Below, in pieces: positions 3,482-17,770 of a DNA stretch of 38,347 nt; position 1 is the stretch's first letter, and each line of letters begins with the position of its first letter. Position numbers and translations under genes: made by a program. Origin of the DNA: a virus (taxonomy: Duplodnaviria; Heunggongvirae; Uroviricota; Caudoviricetes); IMG/VR virus record IMGVR_UViG_2718218452_000008, positions 1-38,347 of that record. One strand, 5' to 3'. The notes beneath the pieces were generated by a model. The model saw only the letters and a program-made list of their open reading frames with translations. It was not told the DNA's origin and did no database searches.

Positions 3482-3904
3482 GTGGCAAAAGTTTTTACAC
3501 AAGAAGAGCGGGAAAAAATTAAAGGGCAGGTTGTTGAACTCGTACGCCGGAGTGGGCGTGAGACGTTACGGCAACTGGAAGTCAAGACAGGTGCGACAAG
3601 ATATCTGATGAGCGTTCTCGCAAGAGAGCTGGTTGCCAGCGGCGATGTATACAACTCTGGTTACGGGTTATTCCCGTCTGAACAGGCGCGTAAGGACTGG
3701 CAAAATGCCCGTAAAAAGCTCTCAAGGGCAAAGCTGAAGGAACCATCTGCGGTTGATCCGGACCTTATCTGGTCATTACCTGACGGAGAAATACGTCGCT
3801 ACGACAGGCGTCAGAACATAATCTGTCGCGAGTGCCGGAAGAGTGAAGTTATGCAGCGCATACTAGCATTCTATCAGGGAAATGCTCGATATTTATTGAA
3901 GTGA
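3482..3904 (+). CDS. Hypothetical protein (140 aa)
   Basis: GTG start 5 nt after a strong AGGAGGG Shine-Dalgarno; normal GC; no recognisable motif. Confidence 0.5.
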   Translation: MAKVFTQEEREKIKGQVVELVRRSGRETLRQLEVKTGATRYLMSVLARELVASGDVYNSGYGLFPSEQARKDWQNARKKLSRAKLKEPSAVDPDLIWSLPDGEIRRYDRRQNIICRECRKSEVMQRILAFYQGNARYLLK

Positions 3905-4156
3905 TGAGATTAAAGTTTATTAGTTCAGATATTGATTGGCTCTTTTGTGGAGTAGGGTAGAGTTAGTGTGTTTGTCTGCTTGGTGCCAGCAGCGGATATG
4001 TTTAACAACAGAAAGCATTCAGCATGGTTAGTGGATTTGCAAAGTGGATTAGGATTTGAGAAACTTTGATGAAGTTGTAAAGCTTGTTTCTATAAAAATA
4101 GAAATTTAACTAATAGTTAAACACACCTCCAGCTTCATTGAAAAGGATTATTAGCT

Positions 4157-5056
4157 ATGATTGATCCACTTATTAGAAACTTACAGAGTGATATTGCACT
4201 ACTCCAGCTTTATATCGCGCAACGCAAACAGGCAGGCTTTCATGACATGGAAAGAATAATTGAGTCATTGACCATCTTTATGTTTCGCGCGCTGAAAATG
4301 GGTGAACTGGTAAACATGAATCAGATTAAAGTTAATTTTCCCGCCATTGATTTAGCTGATAATAAAAACATGATAGCAGTTCAAGTTACTACGAATGCAA
4401 GTCCAGCAAAAATTAAAAAAACTATCGAATCTTTTGAGAAAATAAATGAAATAGGAGAGAGTCTGAAAGATAAATACTCTACTTTATATATTTTTGGTTT
4501 TTGTAAAGCCTCAAGATACCTAACTCCAAGTTATTGTAAAATAATCGACCCCAGCTATTTCGTGAATGAACTTTGCGATAAAGCAGATGAAGATATGGTC
4601 CAGGATATGATTGACGCCATTCGACGCCATCATGATTATACATCATTACATCCATGGAGTGATAAAGATTCACTCGAAATTATACTCAATATTATTAATC
4701 GCAATGCAATAAAACATCGGATGAGTTGCGAAGGCAGTCTGTCTGATATGCTCACTGGTTTAAAAGAAATTAATGAAGTAATTACAAAAGGAACAATTCA
4801 ACGTAAGCAACGTTCAAAATCGATATCTGACTTCAAAGATCAAAGCATGGTGAAATTTATGAGAGGTGTAATGGATGATTTGTCTGTTATTCAAGCCATA
4901 GTGAACAAATCTAAAGTTAACCAAGGTGATATGGTTTATATAAGCCATGAAGATATGATTAATATTGATAAATTAAAAGCTAAAATAGCAAGTGATTCAT
5001 CAGAGATTGCAAGGCTAAATAATATTGATATAACACTAAATGTTGTTGATTTATAA
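4157..5056 (+). CDS. Putative SMEK-domain protein (299 aa), low-GC accessory gene
   Basis: The N-terminal region (NFPAIDLADNKNMIAVQVTTNASPAKIKKTIESFEK...LYIFGFCKA) resembles the SMEK domain as I recall it. The gene is strongly AT-rich relative to flanking phage genes and has an AGGA Shine-Dalgarno. Confidence 0.6.
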   Translation: MIDPLIRNLQSDIALLQLYIAQRKQAGFHDMERIIESLTIFMFRALKMGELVNMNQIKVNFPAIDLADNKNMIAVQVTTNASPAKIKKTIESFEKINEIGESLKDKYSTLYIFGFCKASRYLTPSYCKIIDPSYFVNELCDKADEDMVQDMIDAIRRHHDYTSLHPWSDKDSLEIILNIINRNAIKHRMSCEGSLSDMLTGLKEINEVITKGTIQRKQRSKSISDFKDQSMVKFMRGVMDDLSVIQAIVNKSKVNQGDMVYISHEDMINIDKLKAKIASDSSEIARLNNIDITLNVVDL

Positions 5057-5370
5057 TTGTCGATTTAGCAAAACAGAGAATGCTTTGAAAGTTTCACCGA
5101 GAAATATTTATTGTGAACCTCCTTATTGTTTATCGACTTTTACTCTCCGCTCATTGCAGTACTGTCGGAGAAGGCTACTATGTACAAGAAGCAGCTAACA
5201 TAAGCGAGCATCACTATTGATATTAGGAAGAGTATATAAAAACTTCATGCTGAACCTTACAAAAGTAGGTAAACCGGCAATGGCCTAAGTGGCAGGGTCA
5301 TGTTGATCCGGCACTGCCGAGCTAATAATTAACAAGCAAATCACTCTTTCTAATAATTTGTTGAAATAAA

Positions 5371-6024
5371 CTAAATATGTATATGTTTACCAACAACCAC
5401 ATATGAACTACCTGCTTTGCTCCATGATTTTATTATTTCTAAATTATTATCTGAGCATATTTTACTTACAGTATCCACATCTAATAAACCATAGTAGAAA
5501 GCATTGCGAGAGTTTTGGTATATATACCCATGCAAATGTTTAATACCGCTCTCGTACCTCTTGAAATAAGAACTTTTGTATTGATTGACAATCAGTGCTT
5601 CACCATCACTCTTTAATAATTCTCTAATCGCACTGAGGACTTTGTGAATTGTGGATTCACATGGAATTGCGGAAAGCACGTTTGCGCAAAGTATGAAATC
5701 ATAATGATTTGTTATTTTATCTATATTTTCATAAGAAACAATATTAGCATTCTTATAGTTATTTATCACGTAATCTGGAATCGTGGTTTGTACACCTCTG
5801 ATAATTTGCACTCTTTCTAGTTGTCTTCTGGAATCTAAAAATGTCACAGTTTCAAATTTATTTACTAATTGTTCTGAATATCTAAGTTTTCCACATCCAA
5901 AATCAAGGGCATTGCCATTTTTATTAGTGCTTTCAATCTGTTTACAGAGATAGTTAGATGGCATAGTGTGCGGTTTCGCTGCATTTTCTGAACGTATGTT
6001 TATTCCATTTATTTTGTAATTCAA
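5371..6024 (-). CDS. Class I SAM-dependent methyltransferase (about 217 aa), not DNA-MTase-like
   Basis: Motif I ALDFGCGKLRYS, acidic end of beta-2 (VTFLDSRRQ), post-I ILCANVLSAIP, and LLKSDGEALIV. It lacks DPPY/NPPY and PCQ motifs. Probable TTG start at 6024 (GAGG 6 nt upstream) or 6030; starts 13 bp after the membrane-protein stop. Confidence 0.75.
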   Translation of the reverse strand: MNYKINGINIRSENAAKPHTMPSNYLCKQIESTNKNGNALDFGCGKLRYSEQLVNKFETVTFLDSRRQLERVQIIRGVQTTIPDYVINNYKNANIVSYENIDKITNHYDFILCANVLSAIPCESTIHKVLSAIRELLKSDGEALIVNQYKSSYFKRYESGIKHLHGYIYQNSRNAFYYGLLDVDTVSKICSDNNLEIIKSWSKAGSSYVVVGKHIHI

Positions 6025-6036
6025 AATCAACCTCGT

Positions 6037-6732
6037 TTAAAAAATATTGTTATTGTTAAAGAATTCTTTTATTTTGCTATCAGGTATTTGTCTTACTTGG
6101 CTTTCTGTTCTTGGTTTAACTGATGCTATGAAAATAAGGAAGTCAAATGCGACAAGAGAAATAATCCACAACCAAAGATTAATTAAAGAGCCAGTAACAG
6201 AGAATATATTTGTTAATTTGGCGATACTTATTATTAAAATAGTAACAAATGCGATTACTGTATGTTCAAAGAAAACCCAAAAGTAATAAACTTTGTTCCA
6301 GAAAAGTTCAACGTAATGTTTGTCTTTTAACTCTTTAACTTCTGGGTAATACAGTTTACTCATTACCTTGTGAGATTCATCAGTAGTTAATTTTCTCGTA
6401 ACGCCTGCAATTTTTGCTAATGGTTTAATAATTAAATGACTATCCCACATCTTCCTTATTCCAATAATTTTTGCTACATTATTATGTAGATCTAAAGCTC
6501 CACTAATTACTGACCAAAAAACTGAAGATGCAATTGGTAATATGCCAAAGGTTAATATCCATTTAATAAATTCCTCGTAGTCTTTAACGGGGGGGATATA
6601 CTTGGCATTAATGCCAACCAATGGCATGTAGCCATAAATGACTAATGATAGGTAAAATATAAATGTAGTAATAAAAGTCGCCTTATGGAGCATAGGCAAC
6701 ATTTCATTATAACTCTTTGGTGGTTCTAACAT
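6037..6732 (-). CDS. Predicted 4-TM integral membrane protein (231 aa), first gene of a two-gene operon with the methyltransferase
   Basis: Four long hydrophobic segments (ATFITTFIFYLSLVIYGYMPLVGI; FIKWILTFGILPIASSVFWSVISGAL; YYFWVFFEHTVIAFVTILIISIA; LINLWLWIISLVAFDFLIFIASV). ATG at 6732 has GGAG 7 nt upstream. Very AT-rich. Confidence 0.7.
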   Translation of the reverse strand: MLEPPKSYNEMLPMLHKATFITTFIFYLSLVIYGYMPLVGINAKYIPPVKDYEEFIKWILTFGILPIASSVFWSVISGALDLHNNVAKIIGIRKMWDSHLIIKPLAKIAGVTRKLTTDESHKVMSKLYYPEVKELKDKHYVELFWNKVYYFWVFFEHTVIAFVTILIISIAKLTNIFSVTGSLINLWLWIISLVAFDFLIFIASVKPRTESQVRQIPDSKIKEFFNNNNIF

Positions 6733-7173
6733 TTTACTCTCCAAACACTCAAAAAAAAGCTAATCTTCTATAATAACGAAATTCAGCTGGCACAATTAAA
6801 GATTAATTGCCACCAATTTCTTGATTTTATAATTTTATCTAAATGTTTTTGATTAATCTAGTCCTAAAAGAAACCTACTGCATAAATATTTATGCTGATG
6901 ACCCACTCCCTGTTCGTTAACACATAGCAACGTTAGTAATGCATCCTAAGTGATCAATATTTTTGCTAGCTTCATCTGCTCGCTCAAAGGGAACTATAAT
7001 GTTGGCTTGCGTGTGACTTGGCATGTTTAAAGAAGTGCTGGTGGTGACTGGTTGCTGTTTTCCATTTCCACAGAACAAAATCATAGAAACTATACCCAGT
7101 AGTTGTATTGAATCACTGACGAGACAGCCTCATATTTATCAGGACTGGTGTACGTCCAATACAGGAGGTTGTG

Positions 7174-7263
7174 GTGCTGGTTCTCAAATGTGCGCTGGCT
7201 ATTGCTGCTGTAATGGCAATTTATTGTCTTGCTGTTGTTCTTATGGATCACCTTTCTGATTGA
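7174..7263 (+). CDS. Candidate small hydrophobic peptide (29 aa)
   Basis: AGGAGG at 7163-7168 followed by a GTG start, encoding (M)VLVLKCALAIAAVMAIYCLAVVLMDHLSD, a single predicted TM helix. Not in the ORF track (under 60 aa). Confidence 0.3.
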   Translation: MLVLKCALAIAAVMAIYCLAVVLMDHLSD

Positions 7264-7474
7264 TTTCATATTGGCGAGGTAACGGTAGTTAAGTAGAATT
7301 GCTGCGGGTGCTTGAGGCTATCTGCCTCGGGCATCAACACCAAAGGCAGATAGAGAAAAGCCCCAGTTAACATTACGCGTCCGGCAAGACGCTTAACATT
7401 AATCTGAGGCCATATCTATGCTCTACACACGTAGGTTAGCCTCTTACGTGCCGAAAGGCAAGGAGAAGCAGGCT

Positions 7475-7630
7475 ATGAAGCAGCAAAAGGCGATGTTAAT
7501 CGCCCTGATCGTCATCTGTTTAACCGTCATAGTGACGGCACTGGTAACGAGGAAAGACCTCTGCGAGGTACGAATCCGAACCGGCCAGACGGAGGTCGCT
7601 GTCTTCACAGCTTACGAATCTGAGGAGTAA
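7475..7630 (+). CDS. hok: Hok/Gef-family type I toxin (51 aa)
   Basis: MKQQKAMLIALIVICLTVIVTALVTRKDLCEVRIRTGQTEVAVFTAYESEE is the Hok family signature and near-identical to K-12 HokD/RelF as recalled. The track ORF 7418-7630 extends in frame upstream. Confidence 0.85.
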   Translation: MKQQKAMLIALIVICLTVIVTALVTRKDLCEVRIRTGQTEVAVFTAYESEE

Positions 7631-7698
7631 GAGACCCGGCGGGGGAGAAATCCCTCGCCACCTCTGATGTGTCAGGCATTCTCAACGCACCCGCATTT

Positions 7699-7725
7699 AA
7701 CCCGCTTCGGCGGGTTTTTGTTTTT
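7699..7725 (+). terminator. Intrinsic terminator downstream of hok
   Basis: CCCGC-TTCG-GCGGG hairpin at 7701-7714 followed by TTTTTGTTTTT. Confidence 0.6.
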
Positions 7726-16477: not shown

Positions 16478-16942
16478 TGTTTTGTTATGAAGGTGTTACT
16501 GGTAACGTTAAGGTAATTTAACAAAGAGTCAGTTCCGGACTTTATAGTGTGCTCAGTTCATGGCCAAAAACGATTTCTGTGATAAATATTTTGAATATTA
16601 TTTACAGGTAAATGGAGTGGGGCACATGGATAGAAATATTACAATAGAGAATGAAGTATATGCCCGTATTGTATGGGCAGAGAAGGCAAAAACACGGTAA
16701 TTCCGTGTGTTGCCATGATACCTGATTGGCAGAATAGTTGTTTGGTTTTGAGTATATAGTCAGCGTTTTTTGTTCAGTAATTGCTCCCTCAAAAAATAAT
16801 AAAATAAGGTGATTATTTTTGTTTATTATTTAGTTTTTTTTGTGTGTTGTTTTATTGTTTTTGCGTGGTTTGTTTTTTATTGTTATTTCATTAAGGGAAG
16901 GTAAATTCAGGATGGCAGTCTGTAGATAATCGGAGGTCACTT

Positions 16943-17257
16943 ATGCTACATGATCACGTGGCAGAATGTCTGGAGAAAAAAGGACTGTACCGGAGAGCAG
17001 CTGAACGATGGGCAAAAGTGATGGTACAGCTAAGTGATGACCAGAAAAGAAAAGTGGCGGCACAGAAACGAGCAGAGTGTTTGCGTAAGGCGCGCCGGAC
17101 TCCGGTTTCACCGGTGAACCTGACCGAAATAAAACAAGCGGTCAACAGACTACATTCTGAGTTGGGAATGGGATTTGAAGAGCGGCGGGTATTCCGACGA
17201 TATAAAGGGACAGGAGAACAGAATACGTCCGGAAACGCGCGGTCAAAAAAATGCTAA
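16943..17257 (+). CDS. PerC/Pch-family transcriptional regulator (104 aa)
   Basis: N-terminal HDHVAECLEKKGLYRRAAERWAKVM matches the PerC-family signature as recalled. GGAGG Shine-Dalgarno; preceded by an AT- and T-tract-rich region. Confidence 0.6.
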   Translation: MLHDHVAECLEKKGLYRRAAERWAKVMVQLSDDQKRKVAAQKRAECLRKARRTPVSPVNLTEIKQAVNRLHSELGMGFEERRVFRRYKGTGEQNTSGNARSKKC

Positions 17258-17293
17258 AAAATATCTGAGAGAGTTATTGCCTGTTACCATAAG

Positions 17294-17320
17294 AAAAAGC
17301 GACTTTAGTGGTCGCTTTTT
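17294..17320. terminator. Bidirectional intrinsic terminator between the PerC-like and RHH genes
   Basis: AAAAAGCGAC-TTTAGTG-GTCGCTTTTT: hairpin flanked by an A-run and a T-run. Confidence 0.6.
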
Positions 17321-17338
17321 GTGTCATATATAAGTCGT

Positions 17339-17563
17339 TTAAGTAAACCTGTCTGAACAGGTGCTCTGGTCGTGTTTGTCTTTGTTGGGTACAAATTGAG
17401 AATATTTTTCATTAATTAATCTTCTTCTGCAGGCTTCAATAACCCACGCTGAAAAATTACCTGAACCTTTCAGGTCAAGAGCGATGTTAATTTGTTCAAT
17501 TATCTGGTTTGGAAATCGGATGTTGCGGGTTGTTGTTCTGCGGGTTCTGTTCTTTGATGACAT
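17339..17563 (-). CDS. Ribbon-helix-helix DNA-binding protein (YnfO/YlcI-like)
   Basis: RNIRFPNQIIEQINIAL...GNFSAWVIEACRRRL shows the beta-strand plus two-helix RHH pattern; it sits next to cos as ynfO does in Qin. Confidence 0.65.
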   Translation of the reverse strand: MSSKNRTRRTTTRNIRFPNQIIEQINIALDLKGSGNFSAWVIEACRRRLINEKYSQFVPNKDKHDQSTCSDRFT

Positions 17564-17770
17564 AATGTTGCCCCGTATTCAGTGTTGCTGATTTGTATTA
17601 TCTGAAGTTGCTTTTACGCTAATTTGATGCAGATCAATTAATACGATACCTGCGTAATAATTGATTATTTCTCGTGGTTTGATGGCGTACACACATGTCG
17701 TGATAAACCTCATGTAGATGATAATTATTATCATTTTCGTGGGTCCTTTCCGGCGATCCGACAGGTTACG

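Follow-up and report, generated by a model that had tools for sequence, protein, structure and literature searches.

The closest described counterparts of the locus reported here are hotspots of P2-like prophages, namely the fun(Z) position between the tail-fibre and sheath genes and the tin/old position (Rousset et al. 2022, PMC9122126; Vassallo et al. 2022, PMC9519451). These are fixed slots between conserved phage genes, filled with AT-rich, quickly exchanged cargo that is mainly defence-related; the two papers describe no boundary elements and leave the exchange mechanism open. Here we analysed the whole 38,347-nt stretch of the IMG/VR record IMGVR_UViG_2718218452_000008 (the window), which is a Qin-like lambdoid prophage of Escherichia coli. 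Its slot resembles the P2-like ones but belongs to another phage family and another position, after a Ren-like gene and before the hok locus. The slot holds a low-GC segment (the island) with a SMEK-domain gene and a two-gene operon related to ymfE and ymfD of E. coli K-12 (ymfED-like), and its edges are marked by an inverted pair of 30-bp elements, L and R. As an overall explanation, we consider it likely that the segment from about 4000 to 6970 is horizontally acquired accessory cargo in an exchange slot of the Qin-like prophage. The finding is of a known kind, a prophage moron/defence hotspot with uncharacterised cargo. Its value beyond routine lies in the base-pair definition of the hotspot, in a testable function for ymfE/ymfD and SMEK, and in the shared L/R element.

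A known system within the same phage family is K-12 Qin (segment dicC...flxA-ydfV-relBE-hokD), which has the same backbone and slot, with relB-relE immediately 5' of hokD. However, the cargo there is a toxin-antitoxin (TA) pair plus flxA/ydfV, and the DUF977 and replication genes are deleted. An annotated twin of the window prophage, in strain C7, shows the order dicB, dicA, dicC, ydaT-like gene, replication gene, DUF977 gene and island, followed on the right by hokD, a rem-like gene, DUF968, rusA, Q, three tRNAs, lysis genes and terminase. Across 80 related loci carrying other cargo, the DUF977 gene is 90-100% identical at the nucleotide level, and the same range holds for the hok flank. Since this left flank is the Ren-like PHROG 142, the slot sits where the lambda nin region begins. 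A reading made from the letters of the window alone (the sequence-only reading) had called the position nin-equivalent, which is reasonable given DUF977/PHROG 142 on the left and hok, rem, DUF968, rusA and Q on the right.

The same reading had reported a sharp GC drop over about 3.5 kb (3905-7420) containing the SMEK gene and a membrane-protein/methyltransferase (MTase) operon, and the genes are found as it described them. The GC content of 3905-7420 is 34.1%, compared with 52.8% for the remainder of the window, and the 3516-bp interval of minimum GC across all 38 kb starts at 3861. In steps of 500 bp, the island has a mean GC of 0.325 and a maximum of 0.368, against 0.529 +/- 0.056 outside. 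Codon usage, proposed there as a check, agrees: GC at third codon positions is 0.27, 0.26 and 0.28 in the three island genes, versus 0.56 +/- 0.07 (minimum 0.44) in the 21 other long open reading frames (ORFs).

The edges were set by comparison with about 150 related loci, which included 80 IMG/VR loci sharing the DUF977 gene as well as phage and E. coli records (comparison loci are labelled with L-numbers, such as L002 or L165). Among 70 loci with other cargo, similarity to the window ends at 3988-4007 in 58 and returns at 6962-6981 in 43, a minority breaking further out. From these breakpoints, the foreign segment runs from about 4000 to about 6970 (2.97 kb), with the right edge at 6962-6980. 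The island of the sequence-only reading is thus real but about 0.5 kb shorter than proposed; 3905-3999 and 6975-7278 are conserved backbone and lie outside the foreign segment. The stretch 6975-7278 is 91-95% identical in relatives whatever the cargo; it carries neither a conserved ORF nor a codon-phase bias, its RNA folding is not above expectation (z = +0.6 on either strand), and a scan of its promoter/terminator content gave no signal. Next to it, the hok/mok/sok leader occupies 7279-7474 (match to Rfam sok, RF01794, at 7306-7480 with 114 bits); apart from sok, the Rfam search yielded sub-threshold noise and nothing else. No gene is annotated from the membrane-protein gene to hokD (7475-7630). 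As to the 670 bp of non-coding DNA assigned to the island earlier, 6745-6897 indeed moves with the operon, but about half of the total is backbone or hok leader.

Of 5426 complete E. coli genomes, 145 have the full segment, for the most part with at least 99% identity, and a search of 50,697 deposited phage genomes gave no copy, distant mode included. In L007-L009 and L093-L101, the island shows 100% identity, against 93% for the replication gene and 75% for the rem-like gene. The presence of an identical island in backbones whose nearby genes diverge by 7-25% indicates that it moved recently between prophages. Elsewhere, the three genes are found as one block of about 2.9 kb, at 83-88% identity, in L102-type phages, in L106-type phages and on the IncHI2 plasmid pK820-1 of Citrobacter koseri. 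This version lies 3' of a tail-fibre/host-specificity gene in other phages (L102-L107) and adjoins a serine recombinase gene on pK820-1. It could be argued that low GC is intrinsic to the AT-rich nin/regulatory DNA of lambdoid phages and that the genes are ordinary phage core, as further short patches of the window also fall to 35-40% GC (14.6-17.7 kb). This is extremely improbable, and the rarity of the segment among E. coli genomes and deposited phages, together with the identical breakpoints that hold other cargo in relatives, already refutes it; moreover, neither SMEK nor the membrane protein matches a PHROGs family above noise, and a plasmid as well as the tail-gene regions of other phages carry the same block. 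The earlier proposal of a horizontally acquired cargo is borne out by the absence of the genes from most related prophages and by unrelated cargo at the same position. Insertion sequences (IS3-family or integrase-core) break the island itself in some strains, as in L008/L095 (~10798-12322) and further E. coli genomes, and one insert of about 1.5 kb disrupts the ymfE-like gene.

The region from the Ren-like DUF977 gene to hokD is a fixed exchange slot with sharp, recurrent edges. Within the 80 related loci, the 70 with other content form 22 cargo clusters of 0.75-5.4 kb and mostly 33-47% GC. Their Pfam domains comprise YobI-type NTPase, AbiH, FRG, SMODS, the ABC-3C module (CTD10/DUF2326), DUF5677, RES with HEPN_RES_NTD1, Lit-like Peptidase_U49, GmrSD_N with an AAA_15/21 ATPase, and RelA_SpoT. 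PADLOC matches (E < 1e-5) were obtained for 8 of 10 cargo proteins tested, with the identities Tmn, AbiH, PDC-S15, CBASS cyclase, PDC-M68B, NsnA/PD-T4-2, PDC-S33 and PD-T7-1; the PD-T7-1 homologue is carried by phage mEp460, and PD-T7-1 is an experimentally validated system. Judged by such matches, most of the alternative cargos are known or candidate anti-phage defence systems. For the window cargo it is the location only that suggests a putative anti-phage function. With base-pair edges, this lambdoid Ren-like/hok defence hotspot provides a ready list of candidate systems.

The element at the slot edges is 30 bp long and consists of 8-bp palindromic arms around an 8-bp spacer (8-8-8). Read in the direction of the cargo, it has the consensus T[T/A]GTCCGCTTTG[T/A]GC[C/G]A[R][R]AGCGGAC[R]TTG, or in short form T[TA]GTCCGCTTTG[TA]GC[CG]ARRAGCGGACRTTG. 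Two flavours are distinguished by the spacer, TGTGCCAR in the L-type and TGAGCGAR in the R-type; the copies of the window are listed in Table 1. The 17-mer GTGCCAGNNGCGGAYAT, considered as a separate motif, is the right half of the L element. In the unrelated contexts L102, L103 and L165, the left end of the island begins at the very bases that end the conserved left flank of Qin-like phages, and in L103, L158 and phage P2 the L element likewise follows sequence related to 3905-3971. With a hidden Markov model (HMM) built from 18 copies, the R copies of Qin-like relatives not being in the seed, L(+) was found at the left and intact R(-) at the right breakpoint in all 15 representative other-cargo Qin-like loci. 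Flanking direct repeats, which the sequence-only reading had suggested looking for, were not found, and the inverted 30-bp pair marks the slot instead. A generic repeat search of 3850-7450 yielded short AT-rich pairs attributable to chance and neither direct nor inverted repeats at the flanks, and the HMM gives no detection of the 5134-5163 R copy in the window itself. The L/R pair is seen only by cross-locus comparison, because it is too diverged in the window.

Among IMG/VR contigs, the strict R consensus has 71 exact matches. Considering the 31 R copies with enough inward sequence, 29 have an oppositely oriented partner within 6 kb, which is L-type in 28 cases, and about half of the paired R loci lie outside DUF977-hok slots. 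In P2-like phages, the pair is situated between the tail-fibre and sheath genes, around GmrSD_N+HEPN (NsnA/PD-T4-2-like), PDC-M38 and Mrr cargo, the bracketed cargo having 33-41% GC in backbones of 55-67% GC. In phage P2 it surrounds fun(Z) (AF063097, 15335-15361 and 17429-17450); the 30-bp element at P2 Z/fun may have been partly described already in 2004. K-12 Qin carries an L- and R-type pair in opposite orientation around ydfV/flxA (L151, 5981-6008 and 6970-6997). The pair is also present on the IncHI2 plasmid and in other lambdoid slots, inverted pairs occur in the further loci L004, L196 and L237, and copies of the element are found in Enterobacter islands. In addition, composite cargos hold internal copies, often as back-to-back R(-)/L(+) about 18 bp apart (L015, L141, L165). 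On pK820-1 (L165, 9065-9329), only about 240 bp separate L(+) from R(-), and this stretch, which holds no notable ORF, may be an 'empty' cassette site.

The sharing of the L/R pair by phages, a plasmid and P2 fun(Z) suggests a common cassette-exchange mechanism. Cargo would be swapped at the L/R seams, either by short-homology recombination (Red/RecET-type) or by some site-specific enzyme. Because L and R are in inverted orientation, recombination between them would lead to inversion and not to deletion of the cargo, and the orientation of the K-12 Qin pair is such an inverted arrangement. Integron attC cassettes, Acinetobacter pdif modules and mobile insertion cassettes are units bounded by short recombination sites. 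By analogy, they resemble the units considered here in being small promoter-plus-gene units with short imperfect palindromes and head-to-tail arrays, exchanged between unrelated replicons and often associated with defence or TA genes. However, L/R are unrelated in sequence to attC and dif, the two ends of a unit are inverted copies that differ in their spacers, and no integrase or transposase is consistently adjacent. An integron cassette was rejected, the 30-bp consensus being unlike attC (R''-L''...L'-R', GTTRRRY core) and the window having no integron integrase. With regard to insertion sequences and transposons, neither a transposase in the window nor direct repeats at the slot edges were found, yet the inverted 30-bp pair brackets the cargo.

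Alternatively, L and R might be insulating regulatory elements, such as terminator-like hairpins or operators, which each moron carries along, while exchange proceeds via the long homologous flanks only. The palindromic 8-8-8 structure and the long conserved flanks on either side would fit such a role, as would the place of L, which follows the upstream gene at the position corresponding to that of the terminator tR2 in lambda. However, no U-tract follows the stem, the terminator scan does not flag the elements, and the same elements bracket cargo in otherwise dissimilar backbones (P2 tail genes, the IncHI2 plasmid and Enterobacter islands). Back-to-back R/L copies at junctions inside composite cargos, and IS110-family elements adjoining L/R, also weigh against it. 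The arms show no covariation or compensatory change (82.1% paired, equal to the shuffle mean), which points to a protein-recognised palindrome rather than a selected hairpin, and the hairpin hypothesis was rejected on this ground. We keep the regulatory explanation as a tentative one. As a separate observation, IS110-family transposases lie inside or beside L/R elements (L056, 3902-5179; L141, 693-1970; L165, 11449-12453). IS110-family elements target palindromic repeats, and the positions hint that the palindromic L/R element is such a target.

Table 1. Features of the exchange slot and its flanks in the window
Feature	Position	Strand	Evidence
DUF977/Ren-like gene, left flank of the slot	3482..3904	+	Pfam DUF977, 2e-30; PHROG 142 'Ren-like exclusion protein', 3e-46
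Conserved non-coding stretch running into the L element, with TTGACA	3905..3971	+	Kept in Qin-like phages regardless of cargo
L-type boundary element, intact, TTGTCTGCTTGGTGCCAGCAGCGGATATGT	3972..4001	+	nhmmer E = 6e-4 and 8e-5; left breakpoints coincide with its inner edge or lie a few bases from it
SMEK upstream region, presumed own promoter	4002..4156	+	Moves with the SMEK gene
SMEK-domain protein, 299 aa	4157..5056	+	N-terminal Mrr-like PD-(D/E)xK domain and C-terminal four-helix bundle
Putative decayed R-type element closing the SMEK cassette	5134..5163	-	By homology; aligns with R copies after SMEK in L165 (7154-7177) and L158/L159 (5982-6008)
Distal end of ymfED-like cassette, 3' of the MTase gene, with a small hairpin	5285..5370	-	Homology to ymfED-only loci begins at 5285-5296
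Class I S-adenosylmethionine-dependent MTase, YmfD homologue, 219 aa	5371..6030	-	Pfam Methyltransf_12/23 above cutoff; PGAP 5371-6024
Inner-membrane protein with four transmembrane (4-TM) segments, YmfE homologue	6037..6744	-	60% identity to K-12 YmfE; PGAP 6037-6732
Upstream region of ymfE-like operon, presumed promoter and 5' untranslated region	6745..6897	-	Moves with the operon
Decayed outer R-type element, minus strand TAGTTCCCTTTGAGCGAGCAGATGAAGCTA	6967..6996	-	Weak nhmmer match, E = 1.3; right breakpoints 6962-6981
Conserved backbone non-coding DNA	6997..7278	.	91-95% identity in other-cargo relatives
hok/mok/sok locus, hokD coding sequence 7475-7630	7279..7630	+	Rfam sok; Pfam HOK_GEF 2.9e-23; PGAP hokD

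SMEK is reported as a nuclease effector domain of the partners of short prokaryotic Argonautes (short pAgo; PMC10810196) and of LmuA in short Lamassu (PMC12663957). The window protein has the same N-terminal family and E...NFPAID...QVT...K core as the SMEK/Mrr-APAZ proteins of short pAgo (e.g. Kordia jejudonensis) and as LmuA. It differs from both in being encoded by a stand-alone single gene and in its four-helix-bundle C-terminus; unlike in short-pAgo (SPARDA-like) systems, there is no APAZ domain and no Argonaute gene among the neighbours, and unlike in Lamassu, no LmuB (SMC-like) or LmuC gene was found around it. The protein scores 79.9 bits against PF21941 (threshold 27) and 105.1 bits against NF033859 (threshold 30), and a profile of 36 SMEK homologues matches the solved 'Mrr domain from Kordia jejudonensis Mrr-APAZ pAgo' (E = 2.8e-12). 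Its N-terminal domain has the alpha-beta-beta-beta-alpha-beta core of PD-(D/E)xK (Mrr-like) nucleases, and the C-terminal bundle comprises 140 aa. Residues E36, D65, Q76, T78 and K85 are invariant; T78 occupies the position of the canonical lysine of (D/E)xK (Q76-x-T78), and the Kordia homologue has the same motif. With threonine at that position, catalysis by SMEK is no more than plausible.

Full-length SMEK homologues of 300 aa are widespread in Proteobacteria as single genes with ever-changing neighbours. The upstream region 4002-4156 accompanies the gene in L102-L107, L110 and L165 at 74-82% identity. Six contexts contain SMEK without ymfED (L110, L111-113, L114, L158-160, L161 and L163), and these are always defence-island, integron-like or integrative-element settings. 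In one tail-gene slot the neighbour is a DUF4062 protein; Pseudomonas has HEPN-like and SLATT_5 genes next to SMEK, and Cupriavidus has SymE and DUF87 genes. In Enterobacter the surroundings are integrase/resolvase islands and a TA cluster, in C. koseri a defence island of the ABC-3C/AAA_15 type, and in Vibrio parahaemolyticus an integron-like array that includes SduA_C and FRG genes. The Pseudomonas neighbours (a 219-aa protein and the SLATT_5 protein) were considered as relatives of the window MTase and membrane protein and proved unrelated. A SymE-family toxin gene follows SMEK in both Cupriavidus (L114, 7154-7369) and Enterobacter (L159, 6407-6871), which may be a coincidence or a recurrent neighbourhood.

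The other unit has its described counterpart in the e14 prophage of K-12, where ymfE-ymfD (b1138, b1137) lie beside lit (b1139). The two loci share gene order, abutting ORFs and full-length homology, and in e14 the pair likewise occupies a low-GC accessory prophage segment, there beside a known abortive-infection gene. In contrast, e14 is another prophage with the pair at another position (the icd attachment end), no SMEK gene is adjacent, and a single weak R-type element is detectable, between lit and intE. The membrane protein is 60% identical to K-12 YmfE over 232 aa and the MTase 68% identical to YmfD over 214 aa, the two genes being separated by a 6-nt gap. The upstream region 6745-6897 accompanies the operon in L102, L103, L106, L141, L143 and L165, with homology stopping at 6880-6898, and the conserved block GGGTCATGTTGACCC lies within 5285-5370 at the distal end.

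AlphaFold2 predicts an all-helical membrane protein with four TM segments (predicted local distance difference test score, pLDDT, 87). The protein matches no Pfam, NCBIfam, PADLOC or PHROG family, and its family of 214 clusters at 50% identity has no Pfam assignment in any cluster; apart from short fragments nearly all members have 160-290 aa, and none is much longer than the query. In every locus examined, the MTase gene follows within a few bases of the membrane gene, which is never found alone. The pair occurs without SMEK in e14, in the end region of a P2-like prophage, and in Mu-like and other phages. Distant ymfED-like pairs are found in Vibrio cholerae (among ParDE/Phd cassettes), Microbulbifer and Neptuniibacter, and their upstream proteins retain the YmfE motifs NYNxML, HNK, LYYPEV and FWVxFEH. 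The best families of the MTase are Methyltransf_12/23/11 and TehB, its sole PADLOC match is mad2 at 1e-4, and no sequence match was found among the solved structures of the PDB. Inspection of its 219 aa showed that the DNA-methyltransferase motifs DPPY/NPPY or PCQ...ENV are absent. The literature found on ymfD/ymfE consists of gene lists and neutral mutations, with nothing on function. Both units are represented in Vibrio within same-strand arrays of small genes (SMEK in V. parahaemolyticus, L163 3975-4856; ymfED-like genes in V. cholerae, L152 4318-5651). These arrays hold TA cassettes, Shedu-like (SduA_C) and FRG genes, and resemble chromosomal integron cassette arrays.

The cargo, which the sequence-only reading had taken as one unit, consists of two separable cassettes, SMEK on the plus strand and the ymfED-like operon on the minus strand, because each also occurs without the other (6 SMEK-only and at least 9 ymfED-only contexts). 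The juxtaposition of a nuclease-fold protein and a methyltransferase resembles a restriction-modification (R-M) system, in which SMEK would be the effector, the MTase would provide self-protection and the membrane protein would be an accessory; the genes do travel as the ~2.9-kb block of 83-88% identity in at least three other settings. However, the contexts in which each unit is found without the other are many more, a decayed R element separates the units, and the genes are convergent. Moreover, the MTase motifs are of the small-molecule type (Methyltransf_11/12/23, TehB-like) with no DPPY or PCQ/ENV, and no SMEK gene is adjacent to ymfED of K-12 e14. We consider an R-M-like trio improbable.

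Another explanation is that the operon is a conversion moron acting on host physiology, by TehAB-like methylation/detoxification or envelope remodelling, and that SMEK is an unrelated selfish or toxin gene. The pairing of a membrane protein with an MTase recalls tehA-tehB, the MTase passes Pfam TehB narrowly (24.4 vs 20.4 bits), metabolic cargos (QueH, NUDIX+HAD, BCCT) exist in the slot, and SMEK adjoins SymE toxin genes twice. However, the NCBIfam TehB equivalogs give 28-29 bits against cutoffs of 218-303, and the 4-TM YmfE matches no family and shows no similarity to TehA/SLAC1, TehA-type proteins having ten TM segments. The pair also recurs in defence-rich slots, beside lit in e14, in the P2-like end region and in the TA-cassette arrays of Vibrio. 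This explanation appears unlikely, though less so than the R-M trio.

For each cassette, a role in phage defence is somewhat favoured from its location. Both cassettes would be morons expressed in the lysogen from their own promoters and protecting it against other phages. SMEK may act as a stand-alone nuclease-type defence or abortive-infection effector, whose helical domain would sense or regulate. YmfE and YmfD may act together, as suggested by their abutting ORFs and strict co-occurrence; at the inner membrane they could methylate a non-DNA substrate (a small molecule or lipid) and so exclude or abort infection, or alternatively form a pair of effector and modulator. Thereby long-uncharacterised K-12 genes, ymfE/ymfD, and the stand-alone SMEK gain a testable anti-phage hypothesis.

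Several observations weigh against the interpretation of the segment as exchangeable defence cargo. SMEK and YmfE/YmfD are linked to phage defence by no experiment or database model. PADLOC gave no system-level match for the window cargo and nothing meaningful for the MTase or the membrane protein, and its match to SMEK is partial, covering positions 9-143 of 463 of a pAgo-associated restriction endonuclease model with the N-terminal 140 residues. As the canonical lysine is replaced by threonine, nuclease activity of SMEK is not assured. In a promoter scan, sites were no more numerous than in shuffled sequence, and some cargos of the slot (QueH, NUDIX+HAD, a BCCT transporter and an IS110-family element) have no obvious defence role. 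With respect to the boundary element, the R elements of the window are decayed and below detection thresholds. No recombinase is consistently adjacent to the elements and no target-site duplication was seen; given this and the lack of covariation, the exchange mechanism is a conjecture.

Taken at its widest, the proposal is that L/R are functional sites of a phage-borne cassette-exchange network, integron-like or akin to recombinase-mediated cassette exchange, connecting Qin-like lambdoids, P2-like phages, e14 and IncHI2 plasmids, and that SMEK and YmfE/YmfD are two unrecognised anti-phage systems; we advance this as a speculative possibility, short of even chances. The L/R element links the hotspots of unrelated phages. 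If it drives exchange, this would answer how the defence genes of P2/P4 hotspots move so precisely, and would supply a simple sequence tag for finding new defence cargo.

Other features of the window lie to the right of the slot. A second variable slot is located just 3' of hokD (~7640-7840), where many relatives have an insert of about 1.8 kb and this window has none; the insert encodes a 216-aa hypothetical protein and a helix-turn-helix/ImmA-IrrE protein (L002 5897-7631, E. coli O157:H16; L004 4701-6123, phage Tritos). Just past hokD, at 7639-7720, there is a sub-threshold Rfam match to isrK, an Hfq-binding small RNA (25.8 bits vs a gathering threshold of 50, E = 0.013). Three tRNA genes are found behind Q at 10776-11025, assigned by ARAGORN to Met(CAT), Arg(TCG) and Arg(TCT), the first being tRNA-Ile according to PGAP in the twin prophage. 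Finally, a second low-GC patch, shorter and shallower (35-42%), occupies ~14600-17700 in the lysis/accessory region, which in the twin encodes holin, lysozyme, a lysis protein, a PerC-family regulator and a YlcI/YnfO protein.

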